Shown here in pieces: positions 6,665 through 28,723 of a stretch of DNA of 64,000 nt. The notes under the pieces are model-generated. The model saw nothing but the letters and a program-made list of their open reading frames with translations. It did no database searches and was not told where the DNA came from. This DNA comes from a virus, in the IMG/VR virus record IMGVR_UViG_3300021197_001442, positions 31,020-95,019 of that record; one strand, written 5' to 3'. Made by a program: the position numbers and the translations under genes. The first letter of the stretch is position 1; each line of letters starts with the position of its first letter.

Positions 6665-7194
6665 TCTGCTGTTTCTCCGATTATATGATAACAGGCCTTT
6701 GCTATGATCAAGCTATCTGCTCTATCGTATGAAGCTGGCTTTGGGTTTCCTTTGCTAGTATATTCAATAGTAAAAGAATCTTCGTTCTTCAATAAATAGT
6801 CTAAAACAACTTCTTTTGCCTTTTGACCTCTGGATACTTTAATGCCGTTTAGCTTTCTTGCTTGTGCTGGAGATATGTGTACTGGGCTAAACCCAAAAGC
6901 GTCATGACACAACCAAGATGTAATTCCGTTGAATGCCTGTAGTTTAGCCATTGTCTTGGCTGTTGAGCCGCCTGCACGGAAGAACACAAACGGCTCCTCT
7001 ATATAAACATGTTTTATTTTATGAGACTTGCTAATTTCTTCCAGCTTATCTCTAACATGCATAGCTTTACTGTAGAGATCCGGAAAGTATCTTTTGTTCC
7101 GTAGGTCCCAAGCTTCACATTCTATTAATTTTGCATCCTCATCTAATATCGTATAACCTATAATTGAGGTGCTAACGTCTAGCCCTAATATCAT
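6661..7194 (-). CDS. RuvC-like Holliday junction resolvase
   Basis: Acidic catalytic motifs ILGLDVS, VYIEE and DRADS. Confidence 0.85.
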   Translation of the reverse strand: MILGLDVSTSIIGYTILDEDAKLIECEAWDLRNKRYFPDLYSKAMHVRDKLEEISKSHKIKHVYIEEPFVFFRAGGSTAKTMAKLQAFNGITSWLCHDAFGFSPVHISPAQARKLNGIKVSRGQKAKEVVLDYLLKNEDSFTIEYTSKGNPKPASYDRADSLIIAKACYHIIGETAE

Positions 7195-8606
7195 ATATCC
7201 AACTTAACCTTAAATGTAAATTCCCTATCCTCTGTCTTCTTAACAGGTTTTGCAATAGTTGTCACGCCAATTAAGTTTTTATTTTCATCATACAAACCTA
7301 TCTTGGAGATATATGTTTCTTTTGCAAAACTTGCTGTTGGCGTGGTGTATGATGAACTAACTAGATTAACGACAGGCAGGCTTGGCTCGCCGTAGATCAC
7401 AGAGCTTGTGGCACTTGCATAATATCCAGTGGCTGTACTGCGGCTTAGGTATGTTGGGTTGTTTGAATAGTTTAGTTGTCCCTTAGGGGCGTGTGCTAGC
7501 ATGGTTACGACGGGCACCTCGTTAGACCCGGAGAAGAGCAAGGCATAGCTTGCTGAAGCCCTTGTAGTAGCACCCTCGCCATCCGTAGGGATACCGTCGT
7601 TAGCCCCAACTGCAAAGTATAGCCATGATGAGGTCACAGCAGTCCCAGCGTTCTTATAATCTAACGAAGCATCAGACGAAGGCCCAGTGGTCTGTAGATC
7701 CCAACTGCCAGTAAGTATAACGAATCCTTCTTCGTACAGGGCTATACCAGCAACGCTGCCCGATCCTTCACTGCCCTCTGGGCCAACTTGTATAAGTTCA
7801 CCGTTCTTGTTCTCGTCTCTTAGTTGTCCTATCAAAGTTCCTGTCAGGTAGTAATTTAAGTTTATGGTTCCTCGCTCTATCTCAGAACCGTAAAAAATAC
7901 TTGGAATACTAATCAAGTTTACAGGCACCTCGTCTAGATCTCTACTGTAACCGCTTCCAAACGTAGCAGAGTAGCGATAGTGTGGGCTCATAAAAGACTT
8001 AGAATTGATTGAGTTCTTTAGTGAGTTTATGTGAGACGATGATAGTAGTCCTTTTAATCTCTCAAATCTGTCTGCGCTAGTCCTAGCCACAACGCCTAAA
8101 CTAGTCACTGTGTCAGTTGTATTATAGTCTGGTAGGCCTTCACTGGTTGTGTCACCGCCTTGTAGCGATAGTGGTATACCAAGGTGCTCAACTCTTTCGT
8201 CAACAATAACCGTTTCGTTATTTGTCCTCATTGTTGCAAAATGGTTTGTATCAAAAAACTCTCTTGTTATAGAGGCAGACAATGGATAGGTGGCACCGCT
8301 TATATCAGTACCGTAATCAGTTGAATAAAAATCACTTGTAGACACCGTTTTAAAGGTTGTTAAAGAACTACCTTTAGTTATAAAAGGGAATACAAGACCA
8401 GTATCATCAGCAGTCCTATCAATATTTAATTCATATAAGCTGATGTGGCCAGCAGGAACATTGGTAACATTTGATACAAATGCTCCTGCCACCTCTCCAC
8501 GATTATTATAAAATATTTGTGAGTTATAAACATCAAACTTACATGATGGGCTTGTGTCTAAGAAATTTACAAATAAGTCATTTTGATTAAATTTGTAAAA
8601 TGACAT
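7191..8606 (-). CDS. Virion structural protein (baseplate/tail-fibre attachment), paralog of 8616-9752
   Basis: C-terminal NYSNNPTY and YISKIGLYDENKNLIGV...KPVKK resemble tail-collar/fibre-anchor motifs. Ser/Thr-rich. Confidence 0.65.
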   Translation of the reverse strand: MSFYKFNQNDLFVNFLDTSPSCKFDVYNSQIFYNNRGEVAGAFVSNVTNVPAGHISLYELNIDRTADDTGLVFPFITKGSSLTTFKTVSTSDFYSTDYGTDISGATYPLSASITREFFDTNHFATMRTNNETVIVDERVEHLGIPLSLQGGDTTSEGLPDYNTTDTVTSLGVVARTSADRFERLKGLLSSSHINSLKNSINSKSFMSPHYRYSATFGSGYSRDLDEVPVNLISIPSIFYGSEIERGTINLNYYLTGTLIGQLRDENKNGELIQVGPEGSEGSGSVAGIALYEEGFVILTGSWDLQTTGPSSDASLDYKNAGTAVTSSWLYFAVGANDGIPTDGEGATTRASASYALLFSGSNEVPVVTMLAHAPKGQLNYSNNPTYLSRSTATGYYASATSSVIYGEPSLPVVNLVSSSYTTPTASFAKETYISKIGLYDENKNLIGVTTIAKPVKKTEDREFTFKVKLDI

Positions 8607-27164: not shown

Positions 27165-28723
27165 TTTTCAACCCTGAACTTAAATACCTCTGGCTGTTCT
27201 ATCCAGTCACCTATCGAATTATTATAATAAGTAAACTTAACCCCGTACATATAGCCTTCTTGCAGCATCGACATATCAAGATCAAAATAATTACCAGACA
27301 TGTCGTAACTCATTGCTGTGTGTAGGTCGCTTCCTGTTCCATACGGAACAACGTCAAGTTCGTCTATTATTCTGAATATCTTGTAAGAGCCGCTCTCTAT
27401 CTCCGTGTTTTCTGCTACCTTGGAGGCTACGTTATAAACTGTTGGGCACCAATCTTTAGACCGCACGAAGACTCTGAACCTAGCTGATTCGGACGTAGAG
27501 TAGACTGGCTTTAAGTTAGTTATATTGGTTACAAACTTGTCGGACGGAGCCACCTCATAAGAACCAACCGTAGACGGTGTTATTGAGCCAGTATGGTATT
27601 GTATTGATGCCCCGGTAGCGTCAGCAATGGAATCGCTACCACTAAACCACACATCGTAAACTGTTTCTAGTGGAGCTGTGGCAGCTGTTAGCGCTACACT
27701 AGCAGTGTAGATCCCTGTTGACGAGTAGGAGCCCGTCACAACCCTATTGCGGCCTGCATGTGTAACATGGGTGCCATCGACTACAAGCTCAAGTGCGCTT
27801 CCAGATGGAGCCGAATCGTCTGTCGAGCCAGAGAATAGACTTACATAAATATTGCCCGTGCCGATACCAGGAATATTTCTTAGCTGTCCCCGGAAGTAGT
27901 TGTAAAGATAAATTCTATTTAAGTTCTCGTCCGCTGTTGCAAGAGAACTTGAGTAAATAAAGTTACCTCTATTGTCGAGGTCTCTTGAATCCCAGCGTGC
28001 TTCCAAAACTGGACGCTTAAAGAAAAACTCTGAGCCCCTGGCAAAGAACTTTTTAGTATAATAGGACCTTGACTCAGCTTCATGGCTAGAGGAAAGCATC
28101 ACACCAAAGCCATAGTTACTTTTAACTCCAAGCACATTATTTGTGTCGTTTAGCCATTGTTCAACCAAAGTTGTTACGTCAACCTCTAGGTCTTCAGTGC
28201 CGCCATCAAAAGCCTGCGTGAATGACGAAGAAAGGTCCGTATCTGGGTTAGCGTAATCACCACCCTGTGTTGTCCAAGCTGTGGCTGACTTTCTGTTTAT
28301 CCAGTTAGAACCTATGCCACCAGCTGTTGAATCGGTGTAGCCTTCCATATCTAGACCAAAACCCTCCTCCCATTCGCGAGTGCCCGTGGATCCCGTAACT
28401 GCTTTTATTTCCATGGTGTAACTTTTAGGCAGGGTCTGACCGTGCTTTGCATTGTACATCTTTAAGTAAAAAGACACGCTTCCACTTGTTGGAATATCCC
28501 CTGCTGTCCTGTCAGCTGCAACATCCGTGGTATCAAATTCAATCAAAATTCTAGCTAACTCAGCTGATAGTCCAGAAGATGAAGAAGCCTGTCCGTAAAT
28601 TGAAAAAACTTCTAGCACGTCTGACTGGCCCATGTTAGAGCTAGTACCTCTGGTCGTCAAATTAGACTTAAAAGCATTTGTAATTGTATTGTCTTTTGTT
28701 GCAAAGTATCTCTTGATTGCCAT
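27161..28723 (-). CDS. Virion structural protein (baseplate-associated, Ser/Thr-rich)
   Basis: 520 aa; KDNTI...ARILIEFD...DVTTLVEQW...NYGFGV pattern reminiscent of DNRLRE-type domains; lies in the baseplate operon. Confidence 0.55.
   Translation of the reverse strand: MAIKRYFATKDNTITNAFKSNLTTRGTSSNMGQSDVLEVFSIYGQASSSSGLSAELARILIEFDTTDVAADRTAGDIPTSGSVSFYLKMYNAKHGQTLPKSYTMEIKAVTGSTGTREWEEGFGLDMEGYTDSTAGGIGSNWINRKSATAWTTQGGDYANPDTDLSSSFTQAFDGGTEDLEVDVTTLVEQWLNDTNNVLGVKSNYGFGVMLSSSHEAESRSYYTKKFFARGSEFFFKRPVLEARWDSRDLDNRGNFIYSSSLATADENLNRIYLYNYFRGQLRNIPGIGTGNIYVSLFSGSTDDSAPSGSALELVVDGTHVTHAGRNRVVTGSYSSTGIYTASVALTAATAPLETVYDVWFSGSDSIADATGASIQYHTGSITPSTVGSYEVAPSDKFVTNITNLKPVYSTSESARFRVFVRSKDWCPTVYNVASKVAENTEIESGSYKIFRIIDELDVVPYGTGSDLHTAMSYDMSGNYFDLDMSMLQEGYMYGVKFTYYNNSIGDWIEQPEVFKFRVEK

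Follow-up and report, generated by a model that had tools for sequence, protein, structure and literature searches.

A candidate O-glycosylation sequon in distal tail and neck proteins of marine myoviruses with a T4-like baseplate

Glycosylation of phage particles is, to our knowledge, experimentally known only for a few mycobacteriophages. Here we describe a tripeptide, [ST]-[GAS]-S, that is strongly enriched in tail proteins encoded by a 64,000-nucleotide stretch of viral DNA (positions 31,020 to 95,019 of the IMG/VR virus record IMGVR_UViG_3300021197_001442; this whole stretch is called the window below), and we consider it as a candidate acceptor motif for glycosyltransferases (GTs) of the same virus.

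Soluble cytoplasmic GT4 enzymes that O-glycosylate Ser in S-x-S-type contexts are found in Gram-positive cocci, where GtfA/GtfB act on serine-rich-repeat adhesins and SdgA/SdgB on SD-repeats. In systems of the GtfA/GtfB type, the catalytic GT4 has a divergent GT-B protein as its partner, and the glycan is extended by further transferases, which vary. Their acceptors are long low-complexity repeats, unlike the single tripeptides on folded beta domains found in this study, and here there is no accessory Sec system. The general O-glycosylation of Bacteroidota uses the sequon D-[ST]-[AILVMT] on many proteins, and is periplasmic and lipid-linked. The motif in the window also has three residues, and one cultured relative, Flavobacterium phage vB_FspM_immuto (immuto), infects a Flavobacterium; unlike the Bacteroidota sequon, however, it has a hydrophobic residue, not Asp, at position -1 and requires Ser two positions downstream. 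It is also present in a Microcystis phage, and the glycan genes that accompany it include no membrane components.

According to PMC11256854 (citing Freeman et al. 2023), virion glycosylation by phage-encoded GTs has been shown experimentally for the mycobacteriophages Che8 and Rita, the reported target being the major capsid protein. The GTs are phage-encoded in both cases; in the mycobacteriophages structural proteins are modified in the cytoplasm and the glycan is carried on the particle, which for the virus studied here is proposed from sequence. In contrast to that case, the capsid is not enriched in the motif, and proteins of the distal baseplate, the tail end and the neck are the candidates; the motif is short, dispersed and sequon-like and is combined with a hypervariable multi-pathway cassette; and the hosts are marine bacteria, either Gram-negative or cyanobacterial. 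S-layer proteins of Lactobacillaceae carry the O-glycosylation signature SASSAS (PMC10221546). That signature is likewise short, of Ser-Ala-Ser type and located on a surface-exposed structural protein, but each protein has a single hexapeptide, which Gram-positive cells glycosylate outside the cytoplasm, whereas the proteins described here have 9-40 tripeptide sites with a hydrophobic residue in front and the phage enzymes are soluble. Marine pelagimyophages and cyanomyophages possess GT-rich host recognition clusters, which have been read as modifying the host O-chain/lipopolysaccharide (LPS) or DNA (PMC7029224). These clusters resemble ours in forming a hypervariable island of GTs and sugar-nucleotide enzymes beside tail genes in abundant marine T4-like phages; no virion acceptor motif was proposed for them and the clade studied here is a different one. 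For such marine myophages, the literature searched yielded no description of an acceptor motif in tail proteins.

The window makes up the right-hand 64 kb of a viral contig of 95 kb, with every gene on the minus strand. Products of the contig include terminase, portal, major capsid protein, sheath, baseplate hub and wedge proteins of gp25-like and gp6-like type; there is also a series of very large tail proteins and a 17-kb block of genes for GTs and sugar-nucleotide enzymes. The closest cultured phages are immuto and Microcystis phage Mel-JY01 (45% identity in TerL, 31% in the gp6-like protein). No paper was found on Mel-JY01, and nothing was found on the virion proteins of immuto. Many relatives of the contig are present in IMG/VR.

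Motif enrichment in tail and neck proteins

The four motif-carrying proteins of the window (lengths in amino acids, aa) and an adjacent wedge protein, which served as internal negative control, are encoded as follows.

27161..28723, minus strand: 520-aa protein directly after the gp6-like wedge gene; 16 motif sites; all-beta
18588..27164, minus strand: 2858-aa giant distal baseplate/tail protein; 40 motif sites; Pfam Laminin_G_3
8616..9752, minus strand: 378-aa tail-end protein; 9 motif sites
7191..8606, minus strand: 471-aa protein, last of the tail module; 10 motif sites
28723..30516, minus strand: gp6-like baseplate wedge, 597 aa; PHROG 219; internal negative control

The enrichment was first noticed by hand counting, and the counts of that initial annotation were borne out: 15 copies in the 520-aa protein (16 if overlapping copies are included), 9 in the 378-aa protein, 10 in the 471-aa protein, 40 in the 2858-aa protein, none in the gp6-like protein and one in the neighbouring 294-aa protein. 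Expected counts were obtained from 2000 composition-preserving shuffles per protein, the check that the annotation had proposed. All four carriers were far above expectation, with 3.6 sites expected in the 520-aa protein (z 6.7), 3.3 in the 378-aa protein (z 3.4), 3.4 in the 471-aa protein (z 3.7) and 13.2 in the 2858-aa protein (z 7.5); pooled, they held 75 sites vs 23.6 expected (z 10.6). It had also been remarked that many copies follow a hydrophobic residue, and this is the case for 50 of the 75 sites (Leu 17, Val 9, Ala 8, Phe 7, Ile 6), vs 9.1 expected (z 14). As the annotation had stated too, the copies are dispersed rather than gathered in low-complexity runs, being single tripeptides spread across folded beta domains. 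The 2858-aa protein has a ConA-like/LamG domain at residues ~203-392, and its sites cluster in some of its domains (residues 52-967, 1459-1710 and 1992-2372).

When residues were shuffled only within blocks of 10, 20 or 40 residues, the expectation for the pooled carriers rose to 29.4, 26.6 and 25.4, respectively, and the excess remained at z 9-10, with none of 1000 shuffles reaching 75. Locally Ser/Thr-rich stretches are therefore not the cause of the excess. The motif is directional: T[GA]S was found 21 times vs 7.0 expected (3-fold), the mirror motif S[GA]T 8 times vs 7.1, and T[GA]T 5 times vs 5.7; together with the block shuffles, the mirror control rules out local Ser/Thr richness. A Ser is required as the third residue, since T, N, G and A in that place were at chance and D was marginal (1.5x, z 2.1). 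Motif sites use all six Ser codons in background proportions, which places the signal at the protein level and rules out a motif in the DNA. T4 itself rules out a generic trait of T4-type tail proteins: 17 of its baseplate, whisker, neck, sheath, portal and fibre proteins contained 27 copies vs ~28 expected, none of them exceeding z 1.6.

A fifth enriched protein, the 439-aa neck (Ad2-like) protein (7 sites vs 1.5 expected), is encoded outside the window, and enrichment is limited to these five protein families. The gp6-like protein, for which 1.7 copies were expected, has none. Six neighbouring tail proteins similar in composition (294, 1219, 1022, 389, 597 and 2442 aa) were depleted when pooled (8 copies vs 17.6 expected, z -2.4). 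The non-carrier tail proteins lie at window positions 9766-18591 and 28723-38269, and the six contain a single [ST]SS vs 7.1 expected. This depletion could reflect avoidance of the motif where it is unwanted.

Conservation of the sites and loss in two clades

No match to the 520-aa gene was obtained among 50,697 deposited phage genomes by tblastn or blastn. A profile search retrieved ~2,800 cluster representatives of its family, and the best 150 of these have a median of 13 sites vs 3.4 expected. The enrichment is kept in ~100 related viral contigs and in the two cultured relatives, mostly at homologous positions. In 31 related loci all homologues of the 520-aa and the giant proteins were enriched, all but one with z of at least 3.6, and the upstream proteins of 2,000-2,500 aa were never enriched; neither was the gp6-like protein in any relative examined. 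Across all motif-rich loci the giant-protein homologues were enriched with z 4-12. The distal tail proteins of immuto and Mel-JY01 are enriched too, including a 1053-aa 'tail spike' of immuto with 60 sites vs 20 expected. The two tail-end families are more varied among related contigs: orthologues of the 378-aa protein were enriched in G001 and G003 and at chance in G006 and G008, and those of the 471-aa protein were enriched in G001, G003 and G008 and at chance in G006.

The sites of the 520-aa protein are positionally conserved, as seen in 31 and then in 94 homologues, down to ~40% identity, and they interconvert within the class TGS/SGS/TAS/SAS/SSS. Motif residues are retained more often than the remaining S/T/G/A residues of the carriers. 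In the 520-aa family the final Ser of the motif is kept at 0.65 vs 0.35 for other S/T/G/A residues, and the first motif position at 0.81 vs 0.48. Among 85 motif-rich homologues, there were 127 motif columns overall; the motif was present in at least 50% of sequences at 10 columns and in at least 20% at 19. A conserved core of sites thus stands beside a pool of variable ones. That the enrichment is a functionless by-product of composition, low complexity or repeat ancestry is hardly credible in view of this stronger constraint, the dispersal and positional conservation of the sites, the result of the block shuffles and the chance-level mirror motif, even though the carriers contain more Ser, Thr and Gly than neighbouring proteins and small-residue tripeptides in general are ~1.9-fold up.

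A few full-length homologues of the 520-aa protein have no motif at all. Enrichment is a bimodal trait in the 112 loci compared: homologues of the 520-aa and the giant protein have it together or lack it together. In a tree of the gp6-like protein rooted on the cultured phages, motif-poor viruses form clade A (10 leaves, support 0.96), whose sister is a motif-rich clade (support 0.99), and clade B (4 leaves, support 1.0), whose sister is L024/L028 (support 0.95). Since the two clades are separately nested among motif-rich phages, two independent losses have occurred. In the poor contig G006 (57% complete) the four carrier families present were at chance; the neck orthologue is not on its contig. 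In G008 (80% complete), which is otherwise poor, the only excess among the carrier families is in the 471-aa family. The loss is coordinated across unrelated proteins, which argues for a trans-acting cause.

Two further observations concern proteins of the poor contigs. In G008, an excess is kept by a 694-aa protein (6 copies vs 0.9) and by the 518-aa counterpart, an orthologue, of the 471-aa protein (7 vs ~2); in this order, they are encoded at 130936-133020 and 51068-52624 (loci L239, L235). Clade A has an extra protein of 1,100-1,180 aa without a Pfam match (L225:2341-5889 in G006, L226:1915-5241 in G007), whose gene is flanked by the 96-aa and 353-aa-like genes, a place taken in the window by the gene for a 203-aa protein.

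The GT4 pair and the hypervariable glycan cassette

The glycan genes of this clade are arranged in a fixed frame, in the order PhoH, 232-aa protein, PD-(D/E)XK nuclease, GT4a, GT4b, (278-aa protein), variable cassette, 253-aa protein, 96-aa protein and baseplate genes. The block in this frame spans positions 39929-62349 of the window, and its variable part measures 0-16 kb (loci L058-L137). Its main features in the window are these.

57964..59223, minus strand: GT4a, 419-aa GT4-family glycosyltransferase; Pfam Glycos_transf_1
56708..57988, minus strand: GT4b, 426-aa divergent GT4-like protein; weak Pfam GT4 matches; adjoins GT4a
41651..56715, minus strand: hypervariable glycan cassette, assigned by Pfam; all products soluble
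39929..40977, minus strand: conserved distal cassette flank, 253-aa and 96-aa proteins; next to the cassette in motif-rich and motif-poor relatives

GT4a has an EX7E motif at residues 286-294 that is invariant in 5 genomes, and its nearest solved structures are the retaining GT4 enzymes BshA (5d00) and chlorovirus B736L (3oy2). GT4b has no EX7E at the canonical place and no sequence match in the PDB. The pair recalls the priming enzymes of Ser-rich adhesins described above, as a GT4 with EX7E adjoins a divergent partner and GT4a has a weak match to SdgA. This is a resemblance rather than membership: no match of GT4a or GT4b to GtfA/GtfB was found among PDB chains at E<=0.01, and, unlike the adhesin system, the GT4 pair also occurs where the motif is missing.

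Relatives of GT4a were found in at least 508 IMG/VR stretches, and in the best 80 of these it is at least 60% identical. Among these 80 loci GT4b was adjacent in 72 and the 278-aa protein was present in 51; each other glycan gene of the window was present in 0-17. GT4a is a core gene of the clade, and both GT4a and GT4b are present in immuto, Mel-JY01 and every sufficiently complete relative, side by side in the two cultured phages. Two irregular homologues were noted: that of GT4b in G005 (G005:C1:75667-76944) has one in-frame TAG, and that of GT4a in Mel-JY01 (W02 83444-84536) is matched by two open frames, 198 and 313 aa long, that are separate. Either irregularity could stem from a frameshift, a sequencing error or a split gene.

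Besides its transferases, the cassette encodes GDP-mannose dehydratase, SIS, aminotransferases, a dehydroquinate-synthase (DHQS)-like protein, a CMP-sugar synthetase fused to a cupin, epimerases/reductases, DegT, a split transketolase and the unknown 278-aa protein. Its transferases (GT29-like, GT2 and two CgeB-like GTs) together with GT4a and GT4b are the GT genes of the window. Between conserved flanks, the gene content of the cassette varies among relatives and is almost never shared. None of the 22 proteins encoded between 39.9 and 60.7 kb has a transmembrane-like segment, and no flippase, polymerase or lipid-priming transferase was detected among the Pfam matches in the cassette region. 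A glycan made by these enzymes would therefore have to be assembled on a soluble cytoplasmic acceptor, and the virion proteins are made in the same compartment as the soluble cassette enzymes, the cytoplasm.

The genes behind GT4a act like a modular transferase array. In two lineages GT4b is fused to a C-terminal GT2 domain (L227:1497-3506 in G011 and L274:6059-7990 in G040; 669 and 643 aa), and in G001, G002 and G038 the 278-aa protein lies within a reading frame of 536-556 aa, which in G002 also carries a GT2 domain. In a complete relative with terminal repeats, the cassette (L276; G031:C1:140000-152200) encodes NeuB, a CMP-sugar synthetase, two sugar O-methyltransferase-like proteins, a PhyH-like dioxygenase, a glutamine-synthetase-like protein and an S-adenosylmethionine (SAM) lyase, and looks like a decorated nonulosonic-acid pathway.

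The initial annotation had proposed comparing the enrichment among relatives with their GT clusters. The presence or absence of GTs as such proved uninformative as a simple discriminator. Every cultured or complete relative tested has other GTs in addition to the GT4 pair, GTs occur in each of the five related full genomes, and GT4a is also found in the poor phages. In clade A the interval from GT4b to the 253-aa gene is 0.7 kb (five contigs) and contains no glycan genes, only an open reading frame (ORF) of ~82 aa; the 82-aa ORF at that position in G016 is a zinc ribbon. In clade B the same interval is occupied by a GT2 domain, which is fused to GT4b, and by the genes of a 194-aa and a sulfotransferase-like protein. 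The cassettes of the motif-rich contigs examined measure 3.5-15.7 kb and include nucleotide-sugar genes: that of G016 has a UDP-sugar dehydrogenase along with the 278-aa and a 237-aa protein, that of G031 has the NeuB/CMP-synthetase pathway with sugar methyltransferases, that of G011 has 16 genes, and L152 and L190 also combine a large cassette with the motif. The distance from GT4a to the 520-aa gene was 16.8-38.8 kb in ~24 motif-rich contigs and 13.0-16.6 kb in 11 poor ones. In the 80%-complete contig G008 no GT2 was found, and its GT1-family genes are the GT4 pair only. The proposed association finds support in the two separately nested clades that lost the motif and have no cassette or only a remnant of it. 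G046, which is enriched without a cassette, and the GT4 pair, which persists in the poor phages, speak against it. The 278-aa protein is ruled out as a universal determinant, being absent from the motif-rich G031, G023, immuto and Mel-JY01 (E<=1e-3); a 278-aa protein at the same position in G031 is unrelated to that of the window.

A trans-acting factor, to which the coordinated gain and loss across unrelated proteins points, might also belong to another modification or to processing. The motif would then be a site for phosphorylation, O-acylation, a protease or a chaperone, and the factor would have been lost in both clades. The gene-content comparison lends this some room, as G008 also lacks further genes besides the cassette. 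We nevertheless regard it as quite improbable, since no kinase, acyltransferase or protease visibly co-varies with the motif (in a non-exhaustive look at incomplete contigs), and the glycan cassette is the only locus seen to change in both poor clades.

Candidate acceptor sites and alternative roles

The placement of the sites was analyzed on an AF2 model of the 520-aa protein built from a 79-sequence alignment (pLDDT 90.6, pTM 0.88); a model from 23 sequences (pLDDT 56) was too poor for use. The predicted structure is all-beta: residues 1-245 form a jelly roll at the N-terminus and residues 395-520 an Ig/FN3-like domain at the C-terminus, with another beta domain in the middle. The jelly roll resembles polysaccharide-binding modules, namely the chondroitin-sulfate carbohydrate-binding module (CBM) 8wab (Z 18.2) and the alginate CBM 7vbo (Z 14.7), which suggests that this baseplate protein may itself bind glycans. 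Five sites are located at the C-terminal ends of strands (residues 48-50, 110, 211, 298 and 361), two at strand starts (165 and 444), four in loops (27, 80, 258 and 463) and four within strands (307, 330, 340 and 378). Exposure was deduced from DSSP and substitution patterns. At 13 conserved motif columns the poor clade shows D, K, E, P, S and T, the frequency of hydrophobic residues is 0.10 vs a background of 0.28, and the orthologous domains without the motif keep 40-50% identity and their core. Replacement of the motif by charged or polar residues indicates that these are surface positions and that the fold is independent of the motif. The expectation of the initial annotation that the sites would map to the surface agrees with their position in loops and at strand boundaries and with these substitutes.

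The reading we favor, at about even odds, is that phi-[ST]-[GAS]-S (phi, a hydrophobic residue), with its invariant last Ser, provides surface acceptor sites for cytoplasmic, phage-encoded O-glycosylation of peripheral virion proteins. The targets would be the 520-aa protein behind gp6, the giant 2858-aa protein, the two tail-end proteins and the neck protein. Soluble enzymes encoded by the phage would carry this out in the cytoplasm of the host while late genes are expressed, and the glycan would be made by the hypervariable cassette between the conserved GT4 pair and the baseplate genes, so that a short conserved sequon would bear a glycan differing from phage to phage. GT4a and GT4b are candidates for priming, though both persist where the motif is gone; alternatively, a primer may be encoded in the cassette, or it may take the complete glycan for the sites to be under selection. 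Modification of the motif, the residue that would bear the sugar and the transferase that would prime it are inferred, whereas the enrichment with its direction, conservation and limitation to five families, the joint loss in two clades and the diminished cassette in them are observed.

Several findings weigh against this proposal. The major capsid protein, which is exposed, is not enriched, and the sheath is only marginally so; the suggestion of the initial annotation that exposed tail proteins bear acceptor sites has partial, correlative support for the peripheral carriers, but 'exposed' was too broad. Contig G046 (locus L028; 21% complete), which groups as sister to clade B, lacks a cassette in the interval from GT4b to the 253-aa gene and is still ~2.5-fold enriched (8 sites vs 3.5, 26 vs 10.7 and 9 vs 3.1), the weakest enrichment among motif-rich loci; it could represent decay in progress after the loss, or a counter-example. 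Three GT domains and a sulfotransferase persist in clade B, which lacks the motif, and the poor contig G006 has a GT2 elsewhere. GT4a is found in all poor contigs that reach the region, and both GT4a and GT4b are retained in poor phages at 53-60% identity; the pair therefore has a motif-independent role and is not sufficient to maintain the motif. Finally, the association of cassette and motif is correlative and rests on two, perhaps three, evolutionary events.

Some of these points favor a different account, in which the motif is a non-covalent surface feature, the cassette modifies the host envelope, and both co-vary through the type of host surface. The motif could be a Ser/Thr-rich strand-end turn that aids the contact of CBM-, LamG- or Ig-like domains with host polysaccharide, or could serve assembly or solubility. 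The carriers do consist of beta-sandwich, CBM-like and lectin-like domains, with many sites at strand ends, and the persistence of the GT4 pair without the motif and the enrichment in the cassette-less G046 would be expected. Such GT clusters have moreover been taken as host LPS modification (PMC7029224), which speaks for this account and against virion glycosylation. We find this main rival rather unlikely. A direction-specific tripeptide shared by five unrelated families and many folds is unlike binding sites, and orthologous domains retain their identity and core while charged residues replace the motif. T4 and relatives with solved folds hint at no generic structural preference, and the cassette has no membrane, export or lipid-priming component for reaching the envelope.

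The observation itself is statistically solid, and O-glycosylation would be the reading supported by comparison among relatives. Extended to the clade, our tentative view, held with slightly less than balanced confidence, is that an abundant group of marine myoviruses with a T4-like baseplate may decorate the distal tail and neck with phage-made, strain-variable glycans at phi-[ST]-[GAS]-S. This gives a concrete prediction of the proteins, residues and genes involved, and the same signal in the cultured relatives immuto and Mel-JY01 makes it testable. If true, the motif would be a new O-glycosylation sequon of bacterial viruses, and acceptor sites that are conserved together with a glycan island that is hypervariable would amount to an 'O-antigen' of the phage tail. 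The hypervariability of the island would be explained by a variable glycan coat on the host-recognition apparatus, and GT islands beside the tail genes of marine phages, now read as modifiers of host LPS, would be reinterpreted. Such a coat would bear on host range, on competition between phages and on the recognition of phage particles.

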